Source: Candidatus Omnitrophota bacterium (lineage in GTDB: Bacteria; Omnitrophota; Gorgyraeia; Gygaellales; JAQTUX01). Taken from it: 64,000 nucleotides of DNA. The position numbers were made by a program, and so were the translations under genes. Below are positions 5,036-43,578 of this stretch, piece after piece. The notes under the pieces are model-generated. The model worked only from the letters and a program-made list of their open reading frames with translations, was not told where the DNA came from and made no database searches. The stretch's first letter is position 1. Each line of letters starts with the position of its first letter. Location: assembly GCA_028707125.1 (NCBI GenBank), contig JAQTUX010000001.1, forward strand, positions 468,142 to 532,141, in the 5' to 3' direction.

Positions 5036-5138
5036 AAGCGAAAAGCGCAAAGCGAAAAACGCAAAACTAAAACGTAAAGTTCAAAACGTTTTAAACTTTA
5101 AACTTTGGTTTTACGCTTTGCGCTTTACATTTTACGCT
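5036..5138. repeat. long imperfect palindromic intergenic element (copy 1); 3' 32 bp identical to the copy at 9959-9990
   Basis: aagcgaaaagcgcaaagcg...ggttttacgctttgcgctttacattttacgct; the two halves are reverse complements of each other. Confidence 0.6.
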
Positions 5139-9871: not shown

Positions 9872-9990
9872 AGCGTAGAGCGTAAAACGAAAAGCGCAAA
9901 ACTAAAGTGCAAAACTTAAAACTTTAAAACAAGAAAACTTTAAACTTTAAGTTTTGGTTTTACGCTTTGCGCTTTACATTTTACGCTAAC
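9872..9990. repeat. long imperfect palindromic intergenic element (copy 2)
   Basis: agcgtagagcgtaaaacgaaaagcgcaaaac...ggttttacgctttgcgctttacattttacgct; same family as 5036-5138. Confidence 0.6.
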
Positions 9991-11049: not shown

Positions 11050-12161
11050 AGAAAGAATTCTTCCGTCCCACAATAGCCGAGATAGACCTGGGCGCGCTGG
11101 AATATAATTTCCGGCAGATAAAGCGCAGGGTCTCGTCGCATACAAAGATACTGGTGACGGTCAAGGCAGACGCCTACGGACACGGCATACTGCGGGTTTC
11201 CAAGCGGCTGGTACGCTGCGGCGTGGATTATTTAGGCGTTGCTTCTCTTGATGAGGCCGTATGTTTGAGAAGGGCAGGGGTGAAATGCCCAATACTTGTC
11301 CTGGGCGTGATCTTCCCCGAACAGGCCGGGACGGTCATCGATCACGATCTGACGCAGACCGTCTGCACCCTTGATGTCTGCCGCGCCCTGGACCGGCTGG
11401 CGGCGCGCAGGCACAAACGGGTCTCTGTCCACGTAAAGATAGACACAGGTATGGGCCGGCTGGGTGTCAGCTGGGGCGACGCCGAAGAATTCATCAGCGC
11501 CCTGTATAAGCAGATGAAGCACGTTTCCATAGAGGGCATCTTTACCCATTTTCCCCGCGCCGATGATAATAAAGCCCTTACCGGACGGCAGATAAGCATG
11601 TTCAGCGCCCTGGTGCGCCGGCTTGAGAAGAAGGGCATATTCATCCTGTTCAAGCACTGCGCCAACAGTATGGCTGTGCTGGATTATCCCGGAAGCCATT
11701 TTAATCTTATAAGGCCGGGACTGATCATTTACGGCCTGTATCCCAAAGACGGCTTAGACATACGGCTGAAACCGGCGATGGGACTGAAGTCAAAGATAGT
11801 TTTTATGAAATCAGTGAAAAAAGGCACGCCGTTAAGCTACGGCCATACCTATATAACCTCTAAAGATACCTCAGTAGCAGTTGTCCCCATTGGTTACGGC
11901 GACGGCTATTCCCGCGGCCTATCCAATAAGGCCCAGGTTTTGATCAAGGGCAGGCGTTTTCCTGTTGTGGGCACTATCTGCATGGACCAGATCCTGGTTG
12001 ATACAGGCAGGTTAAAGGCAAAGGTGGGAGATGAAGTTGTCTTGATCGGCCGTCAGGGAAAACAGGCAATTACCGCTGAAGAGATCGCCCGCCTCACGCG
12101 CACCATCCCTTATGAAGTCGTCTGCCAGGTAGGCAGGCGCGTCCCGCGGATATACAGGTAA
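11031..12161 (+). CDS. alr: alanine racemase
   Basis: PLP-lysine motif VTVKADAYGHGI and C-terminal beta-domain. Its 3' 70 nt are duplicated at 21792-21872. Confidence 0.9.
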   Translation: MPDQEMKKEFFRPTIAEIDLGALEYNFRQIKRRVSSHTKILVTVKADAYGHGILRVSKRLVRCGVDYLGVASLDEAVCLRRAGVKCPILVLGVIFPEQAGTVIDHDLTQTVCTLDVCRALDRLAARRHKRVSVHVKIDTGMGRLGVSWGDAEEFISALYKQMKHVSIEGIFTHFPRADDNKALTGRQISMFSALVRRLEKKGIFILFKHCANSMAVLDYPGSHFNLIRPGLIIYGLYPKDGLDIRLKPAMGLKSKIVFMKSVKKGTPLSYGHTYITSKDTSVAVVPIGYGDGYSRGLSNKAQVLIKGRRFPVVGTICMDQILVDTGRLKAKVGDEVVLIGRQGKQAITAEEIARLTRTIPYEVVCQVGRRVPRIYR

Positions 12162-12168
12162 TATTTAC
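12088..12168 (+). repeat. left copy of the 81-bp direct repeat (alr 3' end plus 9 nt); right copy at 21792-21872
   Basis: 61 nt are identical (cccgcctcacgcg...gtcccgcg), followed by 20 nt with 4 mismatches. Confidence 0.8.
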
Positions 12169-15200: not shown

Positions 15201-16279
15201 ACAATCAACTCCTTAGCTACGGCAGCCATAGCCATATCTGGGACGGTAAAGATAGTCAGGGTGCATACCTTCCTGAAGGCAGATACACTGTGAAGATAAG
15301 CGCTAAGGCAGAGGATGGAAAAGACGCAGCTCCTGTTTACCTGAATGTTGCCATACTGTTTATTTCTGATATCCGTATTTCTACGGACGAGATTAATCCT
15401 TACGCAGGAGAGGCCGTAACCATATCTTATAGAATGTCACATGAAGGCGTTTTAAATATTAAAATTTATAATAATAAAAATGCATTGGTAAGGAATCTTA
15501 TTCTAAACCAGCCCCGCCAGTCAGGCACATACTCAGAGGTTTGGGATGGCAAAGATAATGCCGGCAGGATTGTGCTTGACGGCGCCTACTATTTTATCAT
15601 AGAGGACAGCAAGGGTGGCGCTGTCTATGATCCTCGCGGCACAGGCGGGAAAGATATCTCCGGCAGCATCCGCCTGTCGGCATCTGATTTTAATCTGCTT
15701 CTTAATCAATTCTGTGTTATAGATTATACTCTGCCCCAGGCAGCAAAGATTAATCTTAAGGTCCGCTATGATAGATATTCAGGCCCGGCTGTCAGGGTGT
15801 TGAAATATCAAGAGCCGGTTTCTTCAGGCGCGCACCAGACGCTCTGGGACGGCAGGGATGAGACAGGAGATTTTGTTGACCGTACTGATTTTACCTTTGC
15901 CATCTGGGGATATACATTGGATGAGAATTCCATTTTGGTTGTGGGAGATAGACCTGTAATTAGCAATCCGGCTATTATCCCGGTCCGTTTTAGCCCTTAT
16001 GATAATCCTTATAGCACAGGTGTTTCAGAAGGCACAATCTCCTTTAATCTATCCAGAGATGCCAATGTTACGATAAATATTTATGATTCTGAAGGTAATC
16101 TGGCGCGCAATCTGCTGAATAATCAGCCCTGCGCGCAGGGCAGCAATTCTTTTATCTGGAACGGCAGAAATAACGAAGGTAATTTTGCGTCTGAAGGGTT
16201 TTATCGGGTAGCAATTCAGGCGGAAAAAGACGGCAATTATTCGGAAGGTTATACCTTGCATACGGAGATTTTCTATTGA
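12245..16279 (+). CDS. giant secreted surface protein with tandem PPC (pre-peptidase C-terminal) domains followed by ~5 FlgD-Ig-like domains
   Basis: Signal peptide. Repeated ...DAYSFTA...AGVYYIYV.DSYNYETGSY motifs (PPC-like). Repeated NPFSPD..G......L.Y.L.....V.V.IY....L.R.L...Q..G.H...WDG motifs (FlgD-Ig-like). GTG start. Confidence 0.6.
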   Translation: MSFTNKLPILILKKITQTGILCVSLFLFYLPFAFADISASANVGLTLNSVRGRTIMAGARPISFTLRVQYNGTNQLTFGAEGLRGNATLDAQTGRFYWMPEETDVGTHPITFRVTDGVETDQKTVTYTILHNSTPYTGSVSPDDEIVRSNEQLEFIATYFDNAGWQDIQDVYMSIGGAYFRYNLPENKLYASSNFSQWNGGYTPGTAQIIQVDLDEWQARLDCSKVNINGSGKALEIKWPILFINKTRHNIRKNVSLYAKDRNNLDSGWRESGEIKIRGLKGRILTFGQTIIDTISKENFTVTYTFSASKDDYIYMAFAKTEGSDFQPYLQLFDPSGSHIAYVYDTTANALGTTLTATGRYVLTVSDHNGENTGSYALTLQRFNNPGQASALTAGQTQSASISAPSEIDAYSFTAASADTLIINLVKTSGEFRPYIGVYDDKGKLLKKVDTSSSVTLSMPLARAGVYYIYVRDSYNYETGSYSIALQGASNPELIQLSFGPTVTGAISAASPTVTYTFSASKDDYIYMAFAKTEGSDFQPYLQLFDPSGSHIAYVYDTTANALGTTLTATGRYVLTVSDHNGENTGSYALTLQRFNNPGQASALTAGQTQSASISAPSEIDAYSFTAASADTLIINLVKTSGQFTPRLTVYDSKGKRLESANIFSDTLSASLPQAGVYHIYVVDSYNYETGSYDISLQSASNPDGAVDIAFGETVTGEISSPMDTDVYGFTVNEGDNLYADIRFPKVSGNSYFSPYVRLYDRSGNMIADSTSGMLLHSLPSAGTYYIFVSDNYMDATGSYQLTLSNETPDIDNLSVTPNPFSPDESGTWVDLDTGEIFNDPGPNRVLDDVANISFTASMQGFFDIKIIDSNSQLVRQLVYDVLTPDHRTNLIRVQWNGRSQNSDLVPNGAYTLIVNSGNVDRCLTATINVNKIVFITIARITPNPFSPDRDGVDETTTLSYSLSENSYVSVEIYNQQNTLLRKLADNQLLSYGSHSHIWDGKDSQGAYLPEGRYTVKISAKAEDGKDAAPVYLNVAILFISDIRISTDEINPYAGEAVTISYRMSHEGVLNIKIYNNKNALVRNLILNQPRQSGTYSEVWDGKDNAGRIVLDGAYYFIIEDSKGGAVYDPRGTGGKDISGSIRLSASDFNLLLNQFCVIDYTLPQAAKINLKVRYDRYSGPAVRVLKYQEPVSSGAHQTLWDGRDETGDFVDRTDFTFAIWGYTLDENSILVVGDRPVISNPAIIPVRFSPYDNPYSTGVSEGTISFNLSRDANVTINIYDSEGNLARNLLNNQPCAQGSNSFIWNGRNNEGNFASEGFYRVAIQAEKDGNYSEGYTLHTEIFY
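13148..14169 (+). repeat. intragenic tandem duplication, 636-bp period; 386 bp are 100% identical between units (13148-13533 vs 13784-14169)
   Basis: Exact DNA identity, giving an identical 128-aa peptide TVTYTFSASKDDYIYMAF...LVKTSG. The adjacent halves of each unit are only ~60-70% identical. Confidence 0.9.
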
Positions 16280-16285
16280 TATGGG

Positions 16286-16717
16286 GTGGACGGGATGAAA
16301 AAAACGAGTATGTATATTCTGTTTTTCATAGCCGCATTCTCTTTTAATCTTTTAGCAAAAGAGGCGTATCAAAACCAGTTGATTTTGGAATTAAACTTTC
16401 CAAAAGAAAGCACTGCTAAAATGGAGGCGCCGCGACCAAAGGCAGAGGCCCTGTCCATTTCCGGCGAAATCCTTGTTAACATCAGCCCTGTTCCTGAGAA
16501 AATAGAACAGGACAGGTATTTGGTGGAGTATTTCTTAGATGAGCAGTTAATATATCGAACCACCGGTTTTGACAGGCGCACTTTTGCCTGTATTCTGGAT
16601 ACTGCCCAATATGAAAACGGCACGCATAAGCTGATCATTAATTTCTGGGATAAATCCGGCCCTTCAGCCATCGGCATAAGAGAGCTTATCATTAACAACG
16701 AGGAAACAAATGAATAA
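16286..16717 (+). CDS. hypothetical secreted protein
   Basis: Signal peptide MYILFFIAAFSFNLLA and no recognisable motif. Lies immediately upstream of rhs with a 4-nt overlap. Confidence 0.3.
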   Translation: MDGMKKTSMYILFFIAAFSFNLLAKEAYQNQLILELNFPKESTAKMEAPRPKAEALSISGEILVNISPVPEKIEQDRYLVEYFLDEQLIYRTTGFDRRTFACILDTAQYENGTHKLIINFWDKSGPSAIGIRELIINNEETNE

Positions 16718-19700
16718 CCGCCTCCTGAAGATCCTCTCGGTATTCACGCTTTTCTTCTTTGTTTCCAATATCTTCATACCCCCTGTAGCCCTTGCCGAGC
16801 TTCCCTGCTGGAACGATGCCTCGCTTGCTTCCGGAGAGGGCGGGGTAGATGATGCAGCCACCGCAGGCGGCAAGCCCGCTGGCATAAACCAGAAGAACAG
16901 GACAGAGGCAGCAGATCCTGTTGATGTCTCAAACGGCAATTTCTTCTACCAGAACCAGGATTTATCCATCCCTTCACGAGGACTCTCCTTAGAGATAAAG
17001 CGCTTCTACAACAGTTTAGACACCTACGAAGGCCCCTTTGGCATAGGCACAAGCCACAGCTATAATATATTCTTGTTGGAGATTTCAGAAGCAAGCCAGA
17101 CATACGTTCTAAGGCGTAACGCCAACGGCTCAAAGGACAGATTCCTGCGGAATGCCGACGGTTCCCATACACCTTCAGCTGGCTGCTATGACACCTTAAC
17201 CAAAGACACAACCGGCTACCTGATACAGGACAAGTATGGCTTCATCTATCGCTTTGGTTTAGATGGTCGCCTTAACTCAATCACTGACCGAAACAACAAC
17301 ACAATCTCCTTAGAGTATGACTCACAATCATCTGTATTAAGCAGAGTCAGCGACAGCTTAAGCCGCTTTATTGAATTCGCTTATAACCCCCAGCGCAAGA
17401 TAAGCCAGGTAAGCGACTCTACCGGCCGCCTGATCTCATATGAATACGATTCAGACGGCAATCTAATCTATGTAACCACTCCTGCCACAGGGGATTATCC
17501 TTCAGGACTGACTACCACATACGCCTACGACGATAAGCACAGGTTAACCTCCATAACAAACGCCAGGGATAGGCGATATATATCCCTGGAGTATGATGAA
17601 AATAGCCGCGTAAAGGATCTTACCTATGGAGCAGGCGTATATCGCTTTAGCTATAAGAGCGCTCTTACAACCCTTATTGACCCCAGGGGCTTTACGACAG
17701 AATACGAGCTTAATACAGATGGCACAGTCCAGAGCCAGAAGCAATACGCCGGCAGCTCATCTTATCAAACCAGATACGAATACAACCAGAACCGCGAGCG
17801 CACCAGGATAACCTATCCTGAGGGCAACTGGGTTAAATACACCTATGATAATAAGGGCAGCATTCTGGAAATCAGGCGCAAGAAAGCCAACGCCTCTGAC
17901 AGTGATGACCCTGCAAATGACATAGTAGCTGCCTTTAGCTATGAGCCGCAGTTTAACTTCGTCAAGACCGCAACAGACCCTAAGGGCAACGTTACTACCT
18001 ATGATTATGACTCAAAAGGAAATCTCATCAAAATAATCTATCCGGCTGTTAACGGCGTAAAACCCGAAGTTAAATTCGCCTATAGTGCTTACGGCCCGCC
18101 AACCAGCGTAACAGACCCTAACGGTAATGTAACTACCTATGATTACGACCCTGATACTGGATACTTAGTCAAAACAACCGCTGCTCAAGGCGTTCTTAAC
18201 CTTATCACCCGGTTTACCTACGACACAACCGGTAACATCAAAACCGTAACCGACCCCAAAGGCAGCACCACGACATTTGAATACGACAGCCACAACAACC
18301 TGATTAAGACCACATCCGCTTCACCATTTAACTATGAGACCCTCTATAAATACGATGAGAACGATAACCTGATTGAGCTCCACAGACAGACCGGCGACCC
18401 TGATAATCCCTGGCAGACAACCTCCTACACCTATGATATCCTTGACCGGCTGGACTCTGTCAAAGACGCCATAGGCAATACCTCTAACTTTATCTATGAC
18501 TTAAACGGCAACCGCCGCTCGCTTGCAGATGCGGAAGGTAATACTACTACTTATGAATACGATGAACGCAATCTACTCTGGAGGGTAACCGACGCAGAGA
18601 ATAATGTTACAGAATACTCCTACGATACAAACGGCAACCTCAAGCAAATCACTGACGCAAAAGGCAATGCTACCGTCTACACCTACGACAGCTTTGATCG
18701 GCTCATCTCTACCACCTACGCTGACGACTCAATAGAGGAATACACCTATGACGCCAATTCCAACCTCATCACCAAAAAAGACCCCAAAGGCCAGGTCATC
18801 ACCTACGCCTATGACTCCATTAACCAGCTGGACTTAAAGACCTATCCTGATAAATCAAGCGTTGACTATGTTTATGACATCGGCTCCCGGCTTGTTGATG
18901 TCATTGACAAAATCGGCACCATACACTATGACTATGATGCGGCCAGCCGAATTACCAGCGTAACCTATCCCGGCAATAAATCCGTCTCTTACGAATACGA
19001 CGCCAATTCCAACCGCAGCAAGCTAACCTACCCCGATAATACCTATCTTACCTATATATATGATGAACTCAACCGCCTGACCAATGTAGTTGCCCCATTG
19101 ATGGGGCAAGGCAGTGCCGTCGCCTCCTACACCTATGACGCCCTCTCCAGACGCACCCGGCTTGACTACCTCAACAATACCTACTCGCTCTATGACTATG
19201 ACCCAGCCAGCCGCCTGACAACGCTTACCAATGTCTCTAACTCTATACCTAACCCCTACTCCTACACCTATGATAACGCGGGCAACAGGACGTCATTGCG
19301 AGGAGCCGAAGGCGACGAAGCAACCTACACCTATGACAAGACCTACCAGCTCACAGCCGTCAACTACCCTGACGGCTTTGCCTTCTTTGACACTGCCTAC
19401 GACTATGATGAGATAGGCAACCGCACGACAAACTACACCTCAAACTCCCTCAACCAATATACCAAGGCAGGTACAACCAACCTCGCCTACGACAGCAACG
19501 GCAACCTCACCAATGACGGCAGCTTCACCTACGCCTATGACTACGAGAACCGGCTGGTGAGCGCCTCGTCATTGCGAGGGAGCGAAGCGACCGAAGCAAT
19601 CTACGCCTACGACCCCTTCGGCAGGCGCACCTCAAAGTCATTGCGAGGAGCCGAAGGCGACGAAGCAATCTCCTACATCTACGATGGCGACCAGATCATC

Positions 19701-20468
19701 GCGGAATACGACGCAAGCAACAATCTCATCGCTAAATATATCTATGGTACGGGTATAGATGAACCCATTCTTATGCAAAGGGGGGAGAATGCTTATTACT
19801 ACCACTTTGACGGCCTGGGAAGCGTAGTAAACCTCACCGACTCTTCCGGCTCAAAGGTTGAAAGCTACACCTACGATGCCTACGGTAATCCCATTATCCA
19901 CGATCCATCATCCAATATCCTTCTTCAATCCTCCGTTGGTAATCGCTACATGTTCACAGGAAGAGAATATGATGATGAGACGGGGCTGTATTACTACAGG
20001 GCGAGGCATTATTCGCCGATGATTGGGAGATTCTTGCAGAGGGACTCTTGGCCAGGAATACCAGAAGATCCCGGTTCACTCGTTAATAAATATACCTACT
20101 GCTCCAACAATCCCATAAATTGGATAGATCCTTATGGGTGGGATAAACAGAAGAAGGATCAACCATGGTGGATTGTAGTTGGAGGTATTACAGTAGCTAC
20201 ACCTATTCAAGGGGATGAAGCAATCTTTTGGACAGGAGTAGGTATAGTTGCAATAGGTAGTTATGCTGTTCATCAGTTTAGTAAATATCACGCAAAAGGT
20301 CCGTTATGGAATGCTCCAGGTATGCCAGGGTGGAATTTAAGGCAATATGAAGAACGACAACCAGGAGCTTTCAAGCCACCGCCAAATTTTAAGAATTGGA
20401 AAGATAGAATTATATGGGCAGCTGGTTTACTCGCTAAATTATTTAATAATTTCAGAGGAGGCAGATGA
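16710..20468 (+). CDS. rhs: Sec-secreted Rhs/YD-repeat polymorphic toxin with variable C-terminal domain
   Basis: Signal peptide, dozens of YD repeats (xYxYDxxGNL) and the Rhs core ending ...YYYRARHYSPMIGRFLQRD...NNPINWIDPYGW. A ~120-aa divergent hydrophobic C-terminal domain follows, in visibly AT-rich DNA. Confidence 0.8.
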   Translation: MNNRLLKILSVFTLFFFVSNIFIPPVALAELPCWNDASLASGEGGVDDAATAGGKPAGINQKNRTEAADPVDVSNGNFFYQNQDLSIPSRGLSLEIKRFYNSLDTYEGPFGIGTSHSYNIFLLEISEASQTYVLRRNANGSKDRFLRNADGSHTPSAGCYDTLTKDTTGYLIQDKYGFIYRFGLDGRLNSITDRNNNTISLEYDSQSSVLSRVSDSLSRFIEFAYNPQRKISQVSDSTGRLISYEYDSDGNLIYVTTPATGDYPSGLTTTYAYDDKHRLTSITNARDRRYISLEYDENSRVKDLTYGAGVYRFSYKSALTTLIDPRGFTTEYELNTDGTVQSQKQYAGSSSYQTRYEYNQNRERTRITYPEGNWVKYTYDNKGSILEIRRKKANASDSDDPANDIVAAFSYEPQFNFVKTATDPKGNVTTYDYDSKGNLIKIIYPAVNGVKPEVKFAYSAYGPPTSVTDPNGNVTTYDYDPDTGYLVKTTAAQGVLNLITRFTYDTTGNIKTVTDPKGSTTTFEYDSHNNLIKTTSASPFNYETLYKYDENDNLIELHRQTGDPDNPWQTTSYTYDILDRLDSVKDAIGNTSNFIYDLNGNRRSLADAEGNTTTYEYDERNLLWRVTDAENNVTEYSYDTNGNLKQITDAKGNATVYTYDSFDRLISTTYADDSIEEYTYDANSNLITKKDPKGQVITYAYDSINQLDLKTYPDKSSVDYVYDIGSRLVDVIDKIGTIHYDYDAASRITSVTYPGNKSVSYEYDANSNRSKLTYPDNTYLTYIYDELNRLTNVVAPLMGQGSAVASYTYDALSRRTRLDYLNNTYSLYDYDPASRLTTLTNVSNSIPNPYSYTYDNAGNRTSLRGAEGDEATYTYDKTYQLTAVNYPDGFAFFDTAYDYDEIGNRTTNYTSNSLNQYTKAGTTNLAYDSNGNLTNDGSFTYAYDYENRLVSASSLRGSEATEAIYAYDPFGRRTSKSLRGAEGDEAISYIYDGDQIIAEYDASNNLIAKYIYGTGIDEPILMQRGENAYYYHFDGLGSVVNLTDSSGSKVESYTYDAYGNPIIHDPSSNILLQSSVGNRYMFTGREYDDETGLYYYRARHYSPMIGRFLQRDSWPGIPEDPGSLVNKYTYCSNNPINWIDPYGWDKQKKDQPWWIVVGGITVATPIQGDEAIFWTGVGIVAIGSYAVHQFSKYHAKGPLWNAPGMPGWNLRQYEERQPGAFKPPPNFKNWKDRIIWAAGLLAKLFNNFRGGR

Positions 20469-21791: not shown

Positions 21792-21872
21792 CCCGCCTCA
21801 CGCGCACCATCCCTTATGAAGTCGTCTGCCAGGTAGGCAGGCGCGTCCCGCGCGTATACAAATAATATTTAC
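21792..21872 (+). repeat. right copy of the alr 3'-end direct repeat (degenerate C-terminal coding fragment ...RLTRTIPYEVVCQVGRRVPRVYK*)
   Basis: 61/61 nt identical to 12088-12148, then 16/20 identical. Its stop abuts the convergent lptF/G stop. Confidence 0.8.
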
Positions 21873-34787: not shown

Positions 34788-35218
34788 AGATGGCGAAATT
34801 GTTAACGGTAGCGGCGGTGTTGTTCGGTTTGTTGGGCTGCGCTTCAGTCAGGAAGGAAACCAGGGACGCGCAGATCCAGCAGCTTCAAACGCAGGTCAGC
34901 GATCTAAGCGGTGAGCTTCAGAAAAAGGACGAAGAGATCGGTTATTTAGAGCGGCAGCTGGCAGCGGCCCAGACCCAAAGGGAAGAGATTACCTCCGCGC
35001 GGGAACGCGCGCCAAAAAAATCGCTGGACAGCAAAAAGAGGACCCGTAAGAACATTCAGCTCGCCCTGAAGAAGGCCGGCTATTATAAGGGCGAGATTGA
35101 CGGCAAACTGGGGAAGGCGACAAAAAAGGCTGTCAGGGATTTTCAAAAGGCCAATGGTTTGAGCGCGGATGGGATAGTAGGAAAGGCGACCTGGGCCAAG
35201 TTAAGCGGGCATTTGTAA
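34784..35218 (+). CDS. lipoprotein with coiled-coil and peptidoglycan-binding (PG_binding_1) domain
   Basis: Lipobox LLGCAS, coiled-coil QLQTQVSDLSGELQKKDEEIGYLERQL and C-terminal GKLGKATKKAVRDFQKANGLSADGIVGKATW. Confidence 0.5.
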   Translation: MKMAKLLTVAAVLFGLLGCASVRKETRDAQIQQLQTQVSDLSGELQKKDEEIGYLERQLAAAQTQREEITSARERAPKKSLDSKKRTRKNIQLALKKAGYYKGEIDGKLGKATKKAVRDFQKANGLSADGIVGKATWAKLSGHL

Positions 35219-35245
35219 TAAACAGCGGCTTGGAGGAAAACAGAC

Positions 35246-36238
35246 ATGTTGAAGACAATGAGATCCCCGAGGTTTCTGGCGTGTTCCCTGATGATGATCG
35301 TATTCTTCTGCGCGAGCAATGCTTTTACCTATGCTAAAGATAGAGAGGGAAAGCGCGAAAAAGAATCAAAGGAACTGCAAAAACGTTTTGAATGGTGGCC
35401 TACCGACGCCAAACCCGCTCCCGTAAAAGACCCCGCGATGGGAGGATACTGGTGGATGCCGACAGAGCCGGGGACTGCCCGCCCCTGGGGCAACCGTGGC
35501 TACATTTATGTCTATAAAATAATCTTTGACTATAAGGAGGAAGAGCTCCCGCCGCCCAAGCCGCAGGAGCCGAGGGCGGCCCTGCTTATAAAGAAGATCA
35601 TCAAGAACGTAAAGATCTATTTTGATTACGATAAGTCCGAATTGCGCGACGACGCGGTGGATATACTGGAAAACGCCGTCAGGGTATTGGGAAGGAACCC
35701 CGATGCCAGCGTCCTCATAACCGGCAACTGCGATCTCCGCGGCTCGGAGGCATACAATGAAAAACTGGGGCGAAGGCGGGGGGAGGCGGTAAGAAGATTT
35801 ATGCTGGATAATGGTATCCCCGAAGAGAGGATACGCATAGTCAGCCGCGGCAAGCTGGACGCGATAGCGCACGTAGACGACCTCGTGGGCATGCAGAAAG
35901 ACAGGAACGCGCAGTTCACCATCGCCGAGGTGAAAGAGGTGATGATCCCCTATGGCGGCGAGGGAGAACAGGCCGCCGCGGAAGCGGAAGATATCTCGCA
36001 GGCGCAGGAGATAGAAGACGGCAAATACCTTATTGAAAAAGAGCAGGAAGTGACGTCTGAGGTGAGGATCTCCACAAAGGAATACAGGGTCAAGAAAGGC
36101 GATACGCTTTCAAGCATAGCCAAGGAGCAGCTGGGCAAGGCGCACCGCTGGAAATATCTTTACGAATTGAATAAAGACAGGATCAAAGACCCCAATAAGC
36201 TCAAGGCAGGGCAGGAGATTGTCATTCCAGTAGAATAA
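35246..36238 (+). CDS. OmpA-family protein with C-terminal LysM domain
   Basis: OmpA_C motif NPDASVLITGNCDLRGSEAYNEKLGRRRGEAVRRFM, and LysM YRVKKGDTLSSIAKEQLG...AGQEIVIP. Confidence 0.75.
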   Translation: MLKTMRSPRFLACSLMMIVFFCASNAFTYAKDREGKREKESKELQKRFEWWPTDAKPAPVKDPAMGGYWWMPTEPGTARPWGNRGYIYVYKIIFDYKEEELPPPKPQEPRAALLIKKIIKNVKIYFDYDKSELRDDAVDILENAVRVLGRNPDASVLITGNCDLRGSEAYNEKLGRRRGEAVRRFMLDNGIPEERIRIVSRGKLDAIAHVDDLVGMQKDRNAQFTIAEVKEVMIPYGGEGEQAAAEAEDISQAQEIEDGKYLIEKEQEVTSEVRISTKEYRVKKGDTLSSIAKEQLGKAHRWKYLYELNKDRIKDPNKLKAGQEIVIPVE

Positions 36239-36240
36239 AT

Positions 36241-36259
36241 AGTGCGGAAGGAGAGATTT
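36241..36259. repeat. 19-bp direct repeat agtgcggaaggagagattt (attL-like; copy of the tRNA-Leu 3' end)
   Basis: Identical to 40906-40924, which covers the last 17 nt of tRNA-Leu plus 2 nt. Confidence 0.8.
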
Positions 36260-36330
36260 ACCCGACCATCGTGCCACATAGGTCGGGATCCCGCCGAGAA
36301 TTAGACAAGTAGCGGGAGAACTCTCACAGA

Positions 36331-36700
36331 GCTATGGTGTCCTTCATCTGAGGAATGCCCAAAAGGCCGTTTGTCAATTAACCTACTCGATTCAATCCTA
36401 CTACAACCATACAAATCAATCAAGAGAATAGTCCCCGCGGGCTAGGCCGCTCGCTTCTTGCTAATGCAATGCGTGTTCGGCTCGGCTTGGGGCTGGCGGC
36501 GGGCGGCGGCGCCAGCCCCAAGCGTCCTAGCTTTCAATCCTTTTAAAACCTACCTATGCTCGGCCACTATGCCGCATTCACCAAATAAAAAACTCGGCGG
36601 TGCGGCATGCCGAGCTTCTTGGTGGAAAACTTAGTATTCTCCTTACCAGAACTAATACTAACTATACTTGCGTCTTGAGATTAAAAGAGTTACAATGAAA
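36331..36700 (+). repeat. left ~370-bp inverted repeat of the module; carries an outward-terminating hairpin and an inward promoter
   Basis: Reverse complement of 40380-40815, apart from a ~70-bp internal tandem duplication in the right copy. ctgaggaatgcccaaaaggccgtttgtcaattaacc...gagttacaatgaaaac. Confidence 0.85.
36668..36696 (+). promoter_or_regulatory. sigma70-like promoter TTGCGT-17-TACAAT inside the left IR; ATG of 36703 lies ~7 nt after the -10 (leaderless-like)
   Basis: Hexamers and spacing read directly from the sequence. An identical promoter sits in the right IR facing inward. Confidence 0.5.
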
Positions 36701-36702
36701 AC

Positions 36703-37935
36703 ATGGAAAATTATGTAAAGGAAATGTATTTGGATATTGTTAAGTCAAAAATTGCTGCCTATAAAATCCTTAATTTTGGTGATAAGTTTTCTTTAAAAGC
36801 ACCTTCTAAAATTAACTGTAAAGATTTTAAAGAGCTTATTGCAAAGCTTGAAAATGAGACTTTACAAGATGGTGCAATAGTCACTTTAGATGGTTATTTT
36901 TCAAATTATGCCCAAATGTATTTCCCATTGACATATATGCCTTCAATCCCGTCTGTGGCTAAAATAGAGGAAATTGAAGAAGCACATCAAATCACGGAGG
37001 ATATTATTATTCCTCGAGTAAAAGGAAACTTGCAGTTTTCGTTCAAGAGTTTTCAATTACCAATAGAAAATATTCCGGTTTTAAATATTGAAAATAGACA
37101 GTGGAAAATTGGATTCTTGTATCCTAAGGAATTTTCGGGTTTTAATTTTGAAGAAGATAAAACACCTGAGAAGAATAAATTAAGAGAGCTACGCTTAAAA
37201 ATCCCCTCTTCCGCAACACCGGTTTTGGTTCTTTATGACAATTCTGTTTATTCTCAATTTACGGAAAGCGACGTAATAATTACCGCACAAGTTGCCGTCT
37301 TGGACAAAGCGCTTGTTGATGAATTCGGATGTTGTTTAGGGGACTTACAGTATTTATTACAAAGGAATTCATTTTTTAGAAAAAAGGAAGATACTAATGC
37401 CTTATGTTTAATCCTTAACAAATTCACTGGCGGGATAAAAAATAGTGTAAAACGAGAAGTCGAGGGGACTTTGTTATTGGAAGCATATTTTAGAAAGGAG
37501 ATGCATGTAACTGAACAAGGTTTATCAAAAGCCTTACCCAATGCTCCTGGTGGCTTGCGTATAGCTAATTACCCGCCTTATGCACAAGCAGGATATGGGG
37601 CAAGTATACCTACCAATAAAGTTAATTTTGTTTTACGCCAACCGTTAACCTTCTCAATCTTAACTAATTCGTCAGTTAATAAAGAAGTTTTGTTAAAAGA
37701 CATTGAGTTAATGCGCATACATTTTATGCTATTTATTCGTAATATATGCGCAATAAAAGCGAGCGAGCGTAAAATTAGTCTTTCTCCTCCCGATATATTT
37801 TTCTTATCTTCAATATATGAAAAGAGTTTATTCGGAATAGATAATTTCTTGAAAGCTGCAGGCGGAATTGAAGGAGTTAAAGGATTGGCAGGCTTTAATG
37901 AAACTAGAAACTGGCTTTGGGACTTCTGTTCTTAA
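36703..37935 (+). CDS. hypothetical protein (410 aa), AT-rich, no recognisable domain
   Basis: Long ORF, AT-rich composition unlike its flanks, promoter immediately upstream, and a 4-nt stop overlap with the convergent partner. Confidence 0.5.
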   Translation: MENYVKEMYLDIVKSKIAAYKILNFGDKFSLKAPSKINCKDFKELIAKLENETLQDGAIVTLDGYFSNYAQMYFPLTYMPSIPSVAKIEEIEEAHQITEDIIIPRVKGNLQFSFKSFQLPIENIPVLNIENRQWKIGFLYPKEFSGFNFEEDKTPEKNKLRELRLKIPSSATPVLVLYDNSVYSQFTESDVIITAQVAVLDKALVDEFGCCLGDLQYLLQRNSFFRKKEDTNALCLILNKFTGGIKNSVKREVEGTLLLEAYFRKEMHVTEQGLSKALPNAPGGLRIANYPPYAQAGYGASIPTNKVNFVLRQPLTFSILTNSSVNKEVLLKDIELMRIHFMLFIRNICAIKASERKISLSPPDIFFLSSIYEKSLFGIDNFLKAAGGIEGVKGLAGFNETRNWLWDFCS

Positions 37936-40364
37936 GAGAGACAAAAGAATAAGTGATATATTTTTAGTTTTGTTCTCCATTTAGTTACGTGCAGGGAACT
38001 AAAGGTTTTTCCCGGTGTACCAACATCTATTTCTATGATTTCCAGACTATCTTTTTCAAAATCGTCAAAATCCGTCACGCACTTTTGAGCTCTATTGATT
38101 GTACCTACAAAGTCCTGATCTTTGAAAAAGGTTACCAAAAAAGCAAATTTCTGCTTGTCTGTCAAATTACCCAACAATTGTTTTTCTTTTGATTTGTAGT
38201 ATTCTTCGCCTTTCCAGACTAAACACTCACTAATAGCCTTTTCCTTATCAATCGCAATATGAATATCTGTTTTTCCTTCTCCGTGCTTGCTTTCTCGAGT
38301 TGCAGCTTCGCCAATTTGGGGAATATTTTGTAATTGCACTAACATAATATCTCTTAAATGTTCTTCACCCTGACTTCTGCAAGTGCCTCTTATTTCTTCA
38401 AGACGATTGCCCACGTTAAGCAAAGACTTAAAAACAAGTGTTTCGAAATCTTCTATTGGCGCTTCTTCATCTACATTATTCTTATCTAAGGGTGATCTTT
38501 GCGCTAGTAGCTGATTCTGATAATCAAGACGTAGTTCCTTAATCTCTTGATTACTCTTCAATTTTCTATAATCTTCTTGAAGCAATTTTTCTGCGATTTG
38601 CATCTCTTTTTGAAGACTTGACAATTTTGGTAATTCTTTAACTGCTTGTCTAAAAACTTCTACTGATAGATCAAATTGACCCCTGTCTCTCAATAACCAA
38701 CCTTTTCCTCTATAAGCCATTTCTTTTGTATTTGCATTTCCCTTAGCTATAATGTCATCAAATATAGATAAGGCCCTTTGATCTAATTCTTGTTTTTTTG
38801 CAGCATTTTCTGGCAGATCTCCTAATAATTTATAATATTCCGCTTCAAAAAGATTATTAAGTAATTTCGCATCAAAGGGGAGAAACTCTAGACACATTCT
38901 TGCTTGAGACTTCTTAGCTTCAATTTTTATATACGCGGCTAAATGAAGTAGAGATTTTCTTCGATAAATATCTTTCTTAGATTCATCGGATTCATTTTCG
39001 ATAAGAATTTGATACAATTTGTGACACGCAAGATCATAAACTTCAATATGGCTTGTAAGCAATAAATTATTTGCTGCTATTCCTATAGCTTCGATATTTT
39101 TTGGAAAGGACAAGTGGGATGAAATAGCCAAGAAAGCTAAACCTGAGTATAAGTTGCCTTCTAAGAAATACCCGCCGGCTTGAAAAGCTTTAGAAGCTCT
39201 AAATTGAAGGTAAACTAGTCTTTTACTATTGTTACTTACTAAACCATAACTAATAGCTTGTACCAAAAACAACTCCCCCAAAGACTTATAATAGAGCCTC
39301 TTTGCTTTAGTTGATTTCAATATACGAAGTGCATCCTTATAAAGAATAATTCTTTCTTTAAAAGAAACGTTTTGAGCATTTGCAAGTATTAACTTTGATA
39401 GAGCTTCGCAAATTTGAGATTTTTCAATGGCTGTCGGTTCTTTTTTGAATAATTCTGCTGCCTTAAGAAAAAGGGCTGATTTTTCTTTTGGGTCACCTGA
39501 ATGTCTTGCTTTTAGTTCTTCAATTGTTCCCTTGAGTTCATAAAGCAAGAATTTATCAGCAGTCTTTTCGGTTTCTCCACATGCTTCTTCTAAATATTGA
39601 ATTCGTTTATTGAAATCATTCTGAAAATACGAGGCGGCCCTCAGATAAGCAGATTTAACCTTCGCTAAACATTCAGGATTATCTGCTTTCTCGGCATGTT
39701 CACAAGCTTTTTTAAGCGCTGGAAGACATTCGGGAGAAAAAGAGCTATAATAATATAAAGAAGAATACAGGTAATGAAAACTCATGTACAAATTGAACTT
39801 TTTCTCGTCTCCTGCCTTACTATATTCTTCTGCACACTCCTTAAATAATTCACCCATCTTTTTTGTATCATGTTTCTTAGCTTCTGTAGTAATCTGTACT
39901 AACGCCTCGCACCGTTTTGCCTTTGCAATATGAATATCTTTCTGTGCTTGCAGATAATAATCACCATTTTTAGCAATTTCTTCTGGACTAAGCGATTTTA
40001 CTTTAGATAATTCATATGCTTCTTGTTCATAAAGCTTAGCTTTTTTGTGCTTATTTTTTTCTTCTCCTGCTAAATAAGCTAAATAAGCTGCCTTCATTGC
40101 ACGATAAAAGTTCTTGTCACCACTTTCCTTGAAAGCCTCTAAGCATTTAGCAAAATTTTCTTTTTTATTTTCTGGGGCATCGGCAGCAACTTTTGATAAG
40201 TAATACATGCCAAGCATTTGAAATCCGCTTTTTTTATCTCCAGCAGTTATATATAATTCATGGGCCTTGAAAAAATGAGGAATTCTCTCTAGGAAAGAAA
40301 TTTCATCTTTTTGTGCCAATTCTTGTTCTGCTTGCGCTTCTTTTAATAATTGCTCTTTAGTCAT
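37932..40364 (-). CDS. hypothetical protein (810 aa): N-terminal ~570-aa alpha-helical/TPR-like repeat region plus ~240-aa C-terminal domain with a possible nuclease-like acidic cluster
   Basis: Long AT-rich ORF driven by the right-IR promoter. C-terminal ...HGEGKTDIHIAIDKEKAISECLVWKGEEYY; the D..D.E.K reading is speculative. Confidence 0.5.
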   Translation of the reverse strand: MTKEQLLKEAQAEQELAQKDEISFLERIPHFFKAHELYITAGDKKSGFQMLGMYYLSKVAADAPENKKENFAKCLEAFKESGDKNFYRAMKAAYLAYLAGEEKNKHKKAKLYEQEAYELSKVKSLSPEEIAKNGDYYLQAQKDIHIAKAKRCEALVQITTEAKKHDTKKMGELFKECAEEYSKAGDEKKFNLYMSFHYLYSSLYYYSSFSPECLPALKKACEHAEKADNPECLAKVKSAYLRAASYFQNDFNKRIQYLEEACGETEKTADKFLLYELKGTIEELKARHSGDPKEKSALFLKAAELFKKEPTAIEKSQICEALSKLILANAQNVSFKERIILYKDALRILKSTKAKRLYYKSLGELFLVQAISYGLVSNNSKRLVYLQFRASKAFQAGGYFLEGNLYSGLAFLAISSHLSFPKNIEAIGIAANNLLLTSHIEVYDLACHKLYQILIENESDESKKDIYRRKSLLHLAAYIKIEAKKSQARMCLEFLPFDAKLLNNLFEAEYYKLLGDLPENAAKKQELDQRALSIFDDIIAKGNANTKEMAYRGKGWLLRDRGQFDLSVEVFRQAVKELPKLSSLQKEMQIAEKLLQEDYRKLKSNQEIKELRLDYQNQLLAQRSPLDKNNVDEEAPIEDFETLVFKSLLNVGNRLEEIRGTCRSQGEEHLRDIMLVQLQNIPQIGEAATRESKHGEGKTDIHIAIDKEKAISECLVWKGEEYYKSKEKQLLGNLTDKQKFAFLVTFFKDQDFVGTINRAQKCVTDFDDFEKDSLEIIEIDVGTPGKTFSSLHVTKWRTKLKIYHLFFCLS

Positions 40365-40379
40365 CTAAAAGGTAGTTTG

Positions 40380-40815
40380 TGAACTTTCGTTTTCATTGTA
40401 ACTCTTTTAATTTCAAGACGCAAGTATAGTTAGTATTAGTTCTGGTAAGGAGAATACTAAGTTTTCCACCAAGAAGCTCGGCATGCCGCACCGCCGAGCT
40501 TTTTTATTTGTTCATTGCGGCATGGTGGACGAGCCTGGATAGTTTTTTAGAAGGTTAAGCGAGGACACTGCGGCTGGGGCTGCCCCCACCCAGCCCCAGC
40601 CGCAAACCGAGCTGAACACGCATAGCATTAGTAAGAAGCGAGCGGCCTAGCGAGCGCCAAGCGAAGGCCTGCCCCAAGCCGAGCCGAACACGCATTGCAT
40701 TAGCAAGAAGCGAGCGGCCTAGCCCGCGGGGACTATTCTCTTGATTGATTTGTATGGTTGTAGTAGGATTGAATCGAGTAGGTTAATTGACAAACGGCCT
40801 TTTGGGCATTCCTCA
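40380..40815 (-). repeat. right inverted repeat of the module (with promoter TTGCGT-17-TACAAT on the minus strand at 40395-40423 and a terminator hairpin)
   Basis: Reverse complement of the left IR. Contains ctcggcatgccgcaccgccgag plus a T-tract. Confidence 0.85.
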
Positions 40816-40907
40816 GAAGCAGTGAGGAGGGAGTTTCCCGACCATCGTGTCACATAGGTCGGGATCCCGCCGAGTTACTATATAGCAGCGGGAGAACCCG
40901 AAAATAG

Positions 40908-40990
40908 TGCGGAAGGAGAGATTTGAACTCTCACAGGGTTACCCCCACAACGCCCTGAACGTTGCGTGTCTGCCATTCCACCACTTCCGC
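40908..40990 (-). tRNA. tRNA-Leu (anticodon CAG)
   Basis: Reverse complement reads GCGGAAGTGGTGGAATGGCAGACACGCAACGTTCAGGGCGTTGTGGGGGTAACCCTGTGAGAGTTCAAATCTCTCCTTCCGCA. Cloverleaf with long variable arm, anticodon loop TTCAGGG. Confidence 0.85.
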
Positions 40991-41089
40991 GTTTTCTTCC
41001 TGAACTATCCCGCATATTTTACCCCTTTTGTCCGTAATGTCAAAACAAAATGAATTGTAAGTTCCCTGTCCGGTTGGTATAATTAGGCC

Positions 41090-42046
41090 ATGTTTATCGC
41101 CTCGTTCAATAGCGTGTTTGCGGCGTGTTTTCAGGTATTTGTGCTGGGCTTCCTGGGATATATCTGCTTTAAGCGCCGGCTTGTGGATGATAACGGGCTT
41201 AATTTCATCAGCAAGTTGACAATAGAAGTGACCCTGCCGCTGCTCATATTTACCAGCATACTGCGTAATTTCAGTTTTTCCGCGTTTAATCTTTGGTGGC
41301 TCCTGCCTTTGATAGGCGTGGCAGTCAGCGTATGCGGTTTTTTTGTCTCTCTGCCTTTCTCTCCGTTTTTTAAGGCGGGGCAGGAGAGAAGGCAGTATAT
41401 GGCGCTGATAGGGTTTCAGAACGCCGGATACCTTATGATCATGTTTATCTCCTCATATTTTTCCGGCGCGGACAAAGAAAACATGCTGATACTTCTGTTT
41501 TTGTTTCTTCTGGGTTTTAATCTGCTTGTGTGGTCGTTCGGCGTCAGCTTTCTCACCGGCCGGAGCTTAAGGAGTTTTGAGCTGGGCAGTCTGTTCAGCC
41601 CTCCGGTTATTGCGGCGCTCTCAGGCCTTCTGGCGGTGCTGCTGGGTTTAAACAGGTATCTTCCCGGCCCGCTGATCCAGCCGTTTAAGATGTTAGGCGA
41701 CTGCACCTCGCCGCTGGCGCTGTTTATGATTGGAGGTAATCTGGCGCGGGTGAGACCGAAGGACTTAAACCCCAAGCTCATATCGCTGGCCTCCCTGGGA
41801 AAGCTGGTTATCCTGCCGTTTATCGCCCTGATACTCGTGGTAAATCTCAATCTTCCCCGCTTGTTGGGCTTGTTGATCCTGCTTGAGGCGGCTATGCCTC
41901 CGGCCGTATCCTCGTCGGTAATACTCAGGCATTATAAAAAAGAGGATATATTCGTCAGCCAGGGCATCTTCTTCGGCCACATATTAAGCGTCCTGACCGT
42001 GCCGCTTTTTTTGAGTTTGTATTTTATGCTTAGTGTGGTAAAATAA
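41090..42046 (+). CDS. AEC (auxin efflux carrier) family membrane transporter
   Basis: ~10 TM helices in a 5+5 arrangement with a central loop. Mem_trans-like N-terminus MFIASFNSVFAACFQVFVLGFLGY. Confidence 0.65.
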   Translation: MFIASFNSVFAACFQVFVLGFLGYICFKRRLVDDNGLNFISKLTIEVTLPLLIFTSILRNFSFSAFNLWWLLPLIGVAVSVCGFFVSLPFSPFFKAGQERRQYMALIGFQNAGYLMIMFISSYFSGADKENMLILLFLFLLGFNLLVWSFGVSFLTGRSLRSFELGSLFSPPVIAALSGLLAVLLGLNRYLPGPLIQPFKMLGDCTSPLALFMIGGNLARVRPKDLNPKLISLASLGKLVILPFIALILVVNLNLPRLLGLLILLEAAMPPAVSSSVILRHYKKEDIFVSQGIFFGHILSVLTVPLFLSLYFMLSVVK

Positions 42047-42054
42047 TCTCCCCT

Positions 42055-42507
42055 ATGGGTAAGGTCATAGCCACGAACAAAAAGGCATTAAGGGACTATT
42101 TTGTCGTCGAGACGCTTGAGGCGGGTATCGAGCTGAAGGGCTCCGAGGTAAAATCCGTGAGGGCGGCCAACGCCGACCTCAACGACGGCTATGCCAGGAT
42201 CGAGGGCGGGGAAGCCGTTCTTTATAATATGTACATAGCGCCTTATGTGGAGGCCTCTTATATGAACGTGGACCCTTTGAGGCCGAGGAGGCTTTTGCTT
42301 AAGAAGGCGCAGATAACGAAGTTGATGCAGCAGGCCTCGCAAAAGGGCTGCACGCTTATACCGCTTAGATTATATTTTTCAGACAGGGGCTTTGCCAAGA
42401 TAGAGCTTGCCGTATGCAAAGGCAAGAGGATGTTTGATAAGCGCCAGGCAATAAAGGAAAGGGAGGTTGGCCTGGCGATCAAACGCACTTTGCGCGCGAG
42501 GCGATAA
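42055..42507 (+). CDS. smpB: SsrA-binding protein
   Basis: KVIATNKKALRDYFV...GIELKGSEVKS...GYARIEGGEA; canonical SmpB, immediately upstream of ssrA. Confidence 0.9.
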   Translation: MGKVIATNKKALRDYFVVETLEAGIELKGSEVKSVRAANADLNDGYARIEGGEAVLYNMYIAPYVEASYMNVDPLRPRRLLLKKAQITKLMQQASQKGCTLIPLRLYFSDRGFAKIELAVCKGKRMFDKRQAIKEREVGLAIKRTLRARR

Positions 42508-42937
42508 TATGTTAGAATTGGGTAAGGAAAGGAGGGGGTGATCTGGTCTCGACCTGAGACGAGCCGGGTAAGAGCAGCATGCCGCGGACGCAGGGTAGGC
42601 CGCGTTAACAATCCTTGCACATATAAACGCTAACGAACAGTTGACGTTTAACGGGCTGATGAGCACAATGGAAGTGGTTCCTTCCACTTTTGTTGCGCCT
42701 CAGTTCGCGCTAAGCCTCGTTCGTTAATTAACGAACGAGCCTCTACTTAGCCCTGTCTGGGGGCTGGGATAGAGCGGTTACAGACTGGCTCCAATAGTTT
42801 GCCTTTGTAGTTGGGGCGAGATCTTAAAAGGCTGCTGTTCCGGCGATTCTGTTTATCGAAGCGGCGGAAAGTAAGCATAAAAGATAAACTAAGCATGTAG
42901 CGGCTTTTATCGGGCTGCTTGGGGACGCGGGTTCGAT

Positions 42938-43578
42938 CGGTAAAGGTCGACTCCCGAAGCAATTCGGGATGAAAAATCTGGCTTACATCAGGGAAACCCT
43001 AACGTAGAGACGAGGGCAACCCTGAGGGGTGATGAGCCCTGCAGAGACTGCCTCTTTTAAGAGGCGATAGGAGGCGATACCGTTGGAAGAAGTCGAGAAA
43101 GCGTATATCGCGGGAATCGTTGATGGCGAAGGGACTGTAACCTTGATGAAGCACCATAAAAATGAGACGCATATCCCTTTTGTTGGGATTGCTAATAATA
43201 ATTTGGGGCTTCTGAAGTGGATTAAGTCTCTGGTGGGCGGCAATATTTGTTCGAAGAAGAAAAGATTGCCGCATCACAATGATTCCTATGTCTTAAACAT
43301 AAGACAGGATAGGGCTTTACGTTTTCTCGGCGAAATAGGCGAATACCTGATCGTAAAGAAACCACAGGCAGAATTGATACTGCAGAAGTATAAGTCTGTC
43401 ACGCATCGTAACGGAAGATATACTCCTGCGTTGCTGCAAAAAAAGATGCAGTTGGTTGCCGAGATCAGAAGGCTTAACCAGCGGTAAATATATGCCTCTT
43501 ATAATATGCCAGGCTCCGTCAGGGATTTAGGCGGATGAAGAGATAGTCCACGCTATTTGGAAAACAAATAGATAAGTG
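42938..43578 (+). mobile_element. group I-like intron (641 nt) in the tmRNA T-loop, encoding a LAGLIDADG homing endonuclease
   Basis: Exon 1 ends in U that can pair with intron G in a P1 helix (exon UCGAU / intron GUCGA, loop cgguaaag). Intron ends in G. LAGLIDADG ORF sits inside. Exon junction restores TTCGATT T-loop. Confidence 0.65.
43083..43487 (+). CDS. LAGLIDADG-family homing endonuclease (single-motif, I-CreI-like size)
   Basis: KAYIAGIVDGEGTV motif near the N-terminus, 134 aa, basic C-terminus; intron-internal. TTG start with GGAGG RBS. Confidence 0.7.
   Translation: MEEVEKAYIAGIVDGEGTVTLMKHHKNETHIPFVGIANNNLGLLKWIKSLVGGNICSKKKRLPHHNDSYVLNIRQDRALRFLGEIGEYLIVKKPQAELILQKYKSVTHRNGRYTPALLQKKMQLVAEIRRLNQR

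Follow-up and report, generated by a model that had tools for sequence, protein, structure and literature searches.

How did a pair of convergent, AT-rich genes come to lie between two copies of a tRNA gene end with no recombinase beside them, and what might they do there? The question is raised by a locus in the genome of a Candidatus Omnitrophota bacterium, which we analyzed within a window of 64 kb (the whole stretch of 64,000 nucleotides from contig JAQTUX010000001.1). The locus is a 4.65-kb insert, referred to here as the islet, that lies at the 3' end of a tRNA-Leu(CAG) gene and has only two genes, the open reading frames (ORFs) A and B. We favor a reading in which the islet was acquired horizontally, has lost its recombinase or is supplied with one in trans, much as in a cis-mobilizable element (CIME), and carries the two genes as a candidate defense module; we place about even confidence in this reading as a whole.

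The intact tRNA-Leu(CAG) gene (40907–40990, minus strand; identified by ARAGORN, Rfam 50.8 bits) is the sole match in an Rfam scan of positions 35000–42000, and its 3' end takes part in a perfect 23-bp direct repeat, AAATAGTGCGGAAGGAGAGATTT, at 36237–36259 and 40902–40924, which brackets 36260–40901. A sequence-only reading that preceded this work had recognized the bracketing repeat of the tRNA-Leu 3' end, although it gave its length as 19 bp. The 23-mer comprises the 3' part of the T-loop, the 3' strands of the T-stem and acceptor stem, the discriminator base, and five to six bases beyond the tRNA end. The right copy is attR-like and forms the functional tRNA 3' end together with 5 nt downstream of it, and the left copy is an attL-like, displaced tRNA-Leu 3' end that overlaps the TAA stop codon of a gene encoding an OmpA/LysM protein (35246–36238). 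Because of this overlap, an empty site would put the tRNA end and the stop codon only a few bases apart, with an expected junction reading ...GTAGAATAAATAGTGCGGAAGGAGAGATTTGAACTCTCACAGGG, and the junction of an excised circle would read ...GGGAGAACCCGAAAATAGTGCGGAAGGAGAGATTTACCCGACC....

The composition of the islet sets it apart from its surroundings. The core is 34% GC, compared with 51–52% in the flanks, and the GC content at third codon positions is 0.25–0.28 in ORFs A and B and 0.63–0.67 in the neighboring host genes. Nine tyrosine and serine recombinase queries (phmmer) find no recombinase anywhere in the window, the rest of which encodes housekeeping functions, and no transfer genes were found within the element. 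The tRNA repeat, the GC contrast and the empty recombinase search together bear out the proposal that this is a foreign insert at a tRNA 3' end with no integrase nearby. It has the bracketing tRNA 3' repeat with an intact tRNA and the deviant composition of an integrative island of the tyrosine-recombinase type that targets tRNA genes, and lacks the internal integrase that such islands usually carry near their tRNA-proximal end. Entry would have been by site-specific recombination at the segment of tRNA-Leu(CAG) that runs from the T-loop to the acceptor end, and with its own recombinase now absent the element would be either decayed or dependent on functions provided in trans.

CIMEs are defined as elements that keep attL and attR and have lost their integration genes (PMC5704250). 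The islet conforms to this pattern at the level of sequence, with a tRNA 3'-end direct repeat at both borders and neither integrase nor transfer gene, and its ends are compound in a manner that suggests accretion or decay at a tRNA site. It differs in being only 4.65 kb long, in that no parental integrative and conjugative element (ICE), integrative and mobilizable element (IME) or matching integrase has been identified, and in that its cargo is framed by long inverted arms. CIMEs are not known to have such arms around their cargo.

The compound nature of the ends is seen in a hairpin-forming motif, CCCGACCATCGTGYCACATAGGTCGGG, which occurs exactly twice and in direct orientation, next to both copies of the direct repeat as the sequence-only reading had described, with no occurrences expected by chance. 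The motif lies within a longer direct repeat of 74 nt (the X-unit) whose copies are 85% identical and which contains two hairpins, CCCGACC-N13-GGTCGGG and TCCCGC-N17-GCGGGA. The left X-unit (36249–36321, plus strand) lies between the 23-mer and a tRNA-like 17-mer, GAACTCTCACAGAGCTA (36318–36334), with 15 of its 17 positions identical to the T-stem/variable-arm segment of tRNA-Leu; the right X-unit (40825–40897, plus strand) is flanked by a degenerate 12-nt segment resembling the tRNA end (AGGAGGGAGTTT) and by GAAC. On the strand of the tRNA, GTTC and AAAyCTCyyTCCT flank each X-unit, which places it at the T-loop position of tRNA-Leu. With the 15/17 tRNA match and the perfect 23-mer as its two borders, the left end looks like a tRNA 3' half interrupted in its T-loop by an X-unit. 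In a circularized element the two X-units would make a tandem repeat of about 96 nt around the 23-bp core, an arrangement that may reflect arm-type attP sites, a small insertion element, or repeated rounds of integration and decay. Neither viral contigs nor the rest of the window yielded another copy of the X-unit.

The two genes within the islet are arranged tail to tail, with stop codons that overlap in the palindrome CTTAAG. ORF A (36703–37935, plus strand) encodes 410 residues and ORF B (37932–40364, minus strand) 810, and the products are identical to PHR44_02290 and PHR44_02295, two hypothetical proteins encoded on a 1.26-Mb contig. The closest homologues of ORF A come from three other, diverged metagenomic loci (L011, L012 and L021), each of which carries homologues of both genes stop to stop; across the pair loci the stop codons overlap by up to 9 nt or stand up to 6 nt apart. 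At L011 the ORF A homologue is 34–36% identical and the convergent ORF B homologue 37% identical over ORF B residues 495–807 (E 1e-64); the corresponding values are 33% and 50% at L012, and 49% (a fragment) and 62% at L021. These contigs are short and AT-rich (31–37% GC). Alignment-based scans of viral and metagenome collections recovered no further loci with both genes, and homologues of the pair are absent from the phage and viral collections. The conservation of the pair at three other loci supports the view that ORFs A and B form a functional unit.

ORF A belongs to a family of about 400-residue proteins, comprising 53 clusters, that is unannotated and spread over several phyla including Omnitrophota, Bacillota and Ignavibacteria. 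The statement in the sequence-only reading that neither protein matches a recognized family is therefore only partly right, as ORF A has this family and ORF B contains a domain in common with PDC-S54, described below. An AlphaFold2 (AF2) model of ORF A is of high quality (pLDDT 90.9, pTM 0.90) and has an N-terminal helix, a beta-rich region that contains an OB-fold, and an alpha/beta C-terminal part. The OB-fold is a five-stranded beta-barrel that can be superposed on known OB-folds, and no full-length structural analogue of the model was found. The model suggests that ORF A may bind nucleic acid and act as a sensor or regulator. No ORF A homologues were found in plasmids or phages.

More distant relatives of ORF A are found in other company. 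One (L003, 6269–9218) follows a Drt4/Drt6-type defense reverse transcriptase gene (E 3e-188) on its own strand at a distance of 77 nt, an adjacency that may represent a different partnership for the family; the L003 island also holds an integrase, a resolvase and a HATPase_c protein. A Vulcanibacillus relative follows three serine recombinases, and an Ignavibacteria relative adjoins MazEF. With these other neighbors we reject the generalization that ORF A always pairs with ORF B. We also reject the notion that ORF A is a reverse transcriptase accessory, its support being one weak RTas1299 match (E 0.005) and the single Drt4 adjacency.

ORF B has a helical, TPR-like N-terminal region of about 590 residues, a linker, and a C-terminal domain related to that of PDC-S54. 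The TPR matches are all below threshold and fall at residues 526–580, the best being TPR_12 (E 3.4e-4, 21 bits against a cut-off of 30). The PADLOC scan that the sequence-only reading had proposed finds no match for ORF A and aligns residues 644–771 of ORF B (38052–38435, minus strand) with positions 247–373 of the 410-position PDC-S54 profile (E 7e-20). This is a domain homology and not full-length membership, as true members match positions 4–408 (E 2e-156). Alignment of the C-terminal domains shows invariant E, GK.D, EC.W.G and Q motifs, which in the PDC-S54 relatives are arranged GE...GKTDI...ECKFW...DQLLGY and in ORF B appear as GE, GKTDI, EC(L) and QLLG(N). We take the order GE/GKTD/ECK/QLLGY to be that of the RecB/Cas4-type PD-(D/E)xK nucleases. 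ORF B may thus be viewed as a TPR-like scaffold joined to a PDC-S54-type, PD-(D/E)xK-like domain, probably serving as an effector or as a binding module derived from one.

A tblastn search found 18 plasmid-encoded homologues of the C-terminal domain in bacteria and archaea, and the neighborhoods we inspected include genes for a retron Ec67-type reverse transcriptase, a PbeA-like helicase, SAVED, NACHT, PIN and S-4TM proteins, integrases and transposases. The homologue on a Rhizobium plasmid is a full PDC-S54 protein (E 2e-156), and that on an Escherichia coli plasmid shares the C-terminal domain only. The latter (L008, 4497–8922 of plasmid pEC_CBJ3C) is a 344-residue protein with a different N-terminus, encoded directly upstream of a 1020-residue DEAD/DEAH helicase with PbeA-like and type I restriction-endonuclease-like matches, and this pair may represent a further two-gene arrangement that makes use of this C-terminal domain. 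A search of PDB sequences with the C-terminal domain profile returned nothing relevant, and a search for homologous proteins with the ORF B C-terminal domain gave no matches.

PDC-S54 is a single-gene phage defense candidate, one of 145 proposed by guilt-by-embedding (Payne et al., bioRxiv 10.1101/2024.01.29.577857). ORF B shares with it the C-terminal domain of about 130–160 residues, including the invariant residues E, GK.D, EC and Q, and members of the PDC-S54 family reside on plasmids among defense and mobile genes. ORF B differs in that its N-terminus is the TPR-like region rather than the PDC-S54 N-domain, in the replacement of the ExK lysine with leucine, and in its obligate pairing with ORF A. 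The idea of a split PDC-S54, with ORF A as the missing N-domain, is rejected (hhalign probability 0.3%). There is also a resemblance, and only that, to the Avs/STAND antiviral ATPases, which are defense proteins that couple a TPR sensor to a nuclease effector: ORF B joins helical repeats to a restriction-endonuclease-like domain in a context of the defense-island type, but no STAND NTPase module was detected in it, the order of domains is different, and the OB-fold partner is encoded by a separate gene. Because the PDC-S54 match is partial, the architecture differs, a partner gene is present and the nuclease lysine is lost, the link of ORF B to active nucleases and to PDC-S54 is one of "works like" rather than "is a". 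The suggestion that the islet is a defense cassette is plausible on the grounds of the PDC-S54 match and the occurrence of both families in defense and mobile contexts, but it is guilt by association, as PDC-S54 is itself only a candidate. We propose that defense against phages or other mobile DNA is the most likely role of the pair.

The core is flanked by two inverted-repeat arms, in agreement with the expectation of repeats of about 370–430 bp around an AT-rich center. The left arm (36342–36702, plus strand) is 361 bp long and 49% GC and directly abuts the ORF A start codon; the right arm (40389–40822, minus strand) is 434 bp long and holds a 72-bp tandem duplication (40596–40656 and 40668–40728). 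The arms are host-like in composition (49–50% GC). They are nearly identical in an outer block (153/156) and an inner block (118/123), separated by a diverged central block (about 77–84%), and the identity reaches the base before the ORF A ATG, whereas on the ORF B side it stops 25 nt upstream of the ATG. At L011 the ORF A homologue has a divergent gene only 72 nt upstream, so the long arm is particular to the copy described here and is not part of the module, and the arms cannot be taken as a general trait of the gene pair. The inverted-repeat framing of ORFs A and B is seen in one copy only, in one uncultivated genome.

Each arm contains, at its inner end, an inward TTGCGT-17-TACAAT motif. 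The one facing ORF A (36668–36696, plus strand) has a putative -10 element that ends 6 nt before the ATG, which implies a leaderless mRNA, and the one facing ORF B (40395–40423, minus strand) implies a leader of about 25–30 nt without a Shine-Dalgarno sequence. A similar spacing is found in two of the three homologues examined, with TGGTATAAT-N8-ATG at L011 and TACAAT-N7-ATG at L012. We also note that two host genes in the window, at 41090 (41055–41092) and at about 52852, have a TATAAT box 6–8 nt 5' of the ATG and no Shine-Dalgarno sequence. The proximity of the -10 element to the ATG in ORF A, in its L011 and L012 homologues and in these host genes points to leaderless mRNAs as a common feature of this genome.

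On the outer side of the promoter-like motif each arm also carries an outward hairpin followed by a T tract, as had been described, and both fold well. That in the left arm (36587–36614, minus strand; -21.4 kcal/mol, z -4.0, U6 tract; its stem is listed by the signal scan on the plus strand) would stop leftward transcripts exiting the core, and that in the right arm (40476–40505, plus strand; T6 tract) folds at -17.9 kcal/mol. A further GC hairpin in the left arm (36485–36523; -37.9 kcal/mol) has no T tract, and has a diverged counterpart in the right arm at about 40569–40604. The symmetric arms give the two genes identical upstream sequences and outward terminators, consistent with the view that both receive identical and insulated expression signals. 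No terminator was found between ORF A and ORF B.

These features suggest a model in which the inverted duplication of about 360–430 bp supplies both genes with the same promoter, leaderless for ORF A and with a short leader lacking a Shine-Dalgarno sequence for ORF B. For want of an intergenic terminator, each transcript would run antisense through the partner gene and stop at the terminator of the opposite arm, such that expression of A and B might be coupled by transcriptional interference or by antisense pairing. A further effect of the arms would be to insulate the cassette from transcription of the OmpA/LysM operon and of the tRNA gene, both of which point toward it. Pairs that overlap at their 3' ends and are subject to antisense control or transcriptional interference are found in type I toxin-antitoxin loci and in some convergent restriction-modification systems. 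The A/B pair is like these in that the genes are tail to tail without an intergenic terminator and each transcript must enter the partner, and unlike them in that both are large protein-coding genes and the predicted overlap spans the whole cassette.

Several observations weigh against this account. One simple integration leaves the 74-nt repeats and the tRNA-like fragments of the compound ends unexplained. No empty site, excised circle or second copy flanked by inverted repeats was found in the collections searched, so the case for mobility rests on the repeat and composition evidence from a single genome. In these searches the only match of the flanking Mem_trans protein to genome contigs was a 27%-identical one in Planctomycetota, a 28-nt segment of tRNA-Leu had no match in the metagenomes scanned, and exact look-ups of the flanking proteins returned only run SRR22315508; no close relative came to light in the genome or metagenome collections. 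The inward motifs are present in both arms as the sequence-only reading had stated, but as promoters they are weak, since the -35 element (TTGCGT) has only three of six consensus matches and a consensus promoter scan calls neither copy. ORF A has no match in PADLOC, Pfam, PHROG or PDB, and its distant relatives have no B-like neighbor within about 5–8 kb. PDC-S54 is one of 145 untested candidates, and the nuclease assignment has its own difficulties. The ExK lysine is leucine in ORF B and in its L011, L012 and L021 homologues, with only the D and E of the PD-(D/E)xK motif kept, and the tyrosine of QxxxY is asparagine in ORF B (QLLGN); with both of these substitutions the C-terminal domain may be catalytically dead. 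A single-sequence AF2 model of the domain (pLDDT 34) is too poor to show a nuclease fold, and the sole Pfam hint of a nuclease is a pPIWI_RE_REase match with E 0.17 in one member.

A bolder form of the proposal would see here an undescribed two-component immune system, with a sensor that embeds an OB-fold in a new fold, a TPR protein with a nuclease-like domain lacking its lysine, and convergent, fully overlapping units, under identical promoters set in the long inverted repeats, that make complementary RNAs of about 3.8 kb acting through antisense or double-stranded RNA or as a collision toggle, the whole traveling as an att-flanked cassette that has no integrase and whose attP bears hairpin repeats in a tRNA-like T-loop. 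We consider the full combination quite doubtful.

Among the other explanations, the one that survives best, although we think it unlikely, is that the islet is what is left of a larger integrative element (a prophage, an ICE or an IME) or of elements that accreted in tandem at a hot spot formed by the tRNA gene. ORFs A and B would then be left-over cargo or DNA-metabolism genes, an OB-fold single-stranded DNA binder and a nuclease-like accessory of recombination or replication, with no role in defense, and the arms would be a by-product of rearrangement. An OB-fold protein and a nuclease are also a familiar combination in recombination and replication. The compound ends, with a perfect 23-bp repeat, a 74-bp repeat of 85% identity and two degenerate tRNA-end fragments, are compatible with a series of recombination events, and tRNA sites are well documented as places of accretion or decay (PMC5704250). 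However, no other phage or ICE genes are left in the islet, homologues of A and B are missing from the phage and viral collections, the pair is conserved on its own at three other loci, and the 96–98% identity of the arms suggests that they are either maintained or recent.

Scarcely better placed is the idea of a toxin-antitoxin or addiction module, which we also judge unlikely. ORF B would be a nuclease-like toxin and ORF A its neutralizer, with their ratio set by reciprocal antisense transcription and the module stabilizing the islet instead of protecting against phage. Type I toxin-antitoxin loci typically have convergent transcripts that overlap, and the tight and conserved pairing with overlapping 3' ends, the location on an acquired islet, and the proximity of one ORF A family member to MazEF are all in keeping with such a function. 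Yet the proteins are large (410 and 810 residues) and not encoded in an operon, neither matches a known toxin-antitoxin family, the putative catalytic lysine is missing from ORF B, and distant members of the ORF A family occur without ORF B.

We regard as improbable a model in which the unit bounded by the inverted repeats (36342–40822) is a non-autonomous, transposon-like cassette that inserted into an older att remnant beside the tRNA gene, with the arms as its terminal inverted repeats. Mobile insertion cassettes (MICs) and cargo-carrying miniature inverted-repeat transposable elements (MITEs) have passenger genes between terminal inverted repeats and no transposase. The islet shares this organization, its repeats being long and near-identical, and the unit is nested within the direct repeats. 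There is however no target-site duplication at its ends, where the flanks (...GTGTCCTTCA|IR...IR|AGCAGTGAGG, with IR denoting the inverted repeat) have none in common, and for this reason we reject the interpretation of the arms as insertion sequence ends. At 360–430 bp the arms are about ten times as long as such ends and contain promoters and terminators, no further copy of an arm or of its terminus was found in the window or in viral contigs, and the L011 pair has no such arm. The arm identity also stops exactly at the promoter and predicted transcription start, which is a better fit to duplication of a promoter.

Last, an assembly or binning artefact in this single metagenome-assembled genome, from an organism seen in one run only, is very improbable as the source of the inverted repeats or the whole insert, because independently assembled Logan contigs from run SRR22315508 match 36649–40442 and 40788–42594 of the window at 100% identity, reproduce the junctions of the core with the inner arm and of the outer arm through the X-unit to the tRNA (the left outer junction being without independent coverage), and break off within the arms, which is how a k-mer assembler behaves at a true repeat, and because the arms differ by single-nucleotide changes, a diverged block and the 72-bp duplication, unlike a collapsed repeat. 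The concern raised in the sequence-only reading that the inverted repeats might be artefacts of this kind is not sustained.

The window contains other features of note at some distance from the islet. An 81-nt direct repeat that is 95% identical, at 12088–12168 and 21792–21872, brackets about 9.7 kb with two giant RHS-repeat ORFs (12245–16279 and 16710–20468) and small downstream ORFs, and may mark another acquired or duplicated toxin island; a unit of about 62 nt starting GTCATTGCGAGGAGCCGAAGGCGACGAAGCAA is present in three copies at 19292–19698, inside the second RHS gene. Some 2 kb away from the islet, smpB and an amidase gene flank a free-standing ORF of 134 residues (43083–43487) whose product has a domain resembling the LAGLIDADG_3 homing endonucleases (E 4e-5). 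Palindromic repeats (AAAGCGAAAAGCGCAAAGCG...) border a 4.8-kb gene block on either side (5035–5139 and 9870–9988), where they occur in both direct and inverted register, and one ORF of the window matches the Pfam DNA methylase family N6_N4_Mtase (E 7.5e-41).

What is new here is the conserved A/B pair, the unannotated ORF A family, and the link of ORF B to the defense candidate PDC-S54. The favored reading, of a CIME-like islet with a candidate defense module, makes this a clean and very small case of an att-flanked element that lacks a recombinase, and in a phylum for which experimental genetics barely exist. With its symmetric layout of putative promoters and outward terminators it is an unusual natural insulated cassette, in which reciprocal antisense control of two protein-coding genes is directly testable. 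If the pair does function in defense, it would add a new two-gene architecture, one partner of which belongs to the ORF A family of at least 53 clusters that has neither annotation nor structural analogue, and would tie the candidate PDC-S54 domain to a partner-dependent variant without the catalytic lysine.

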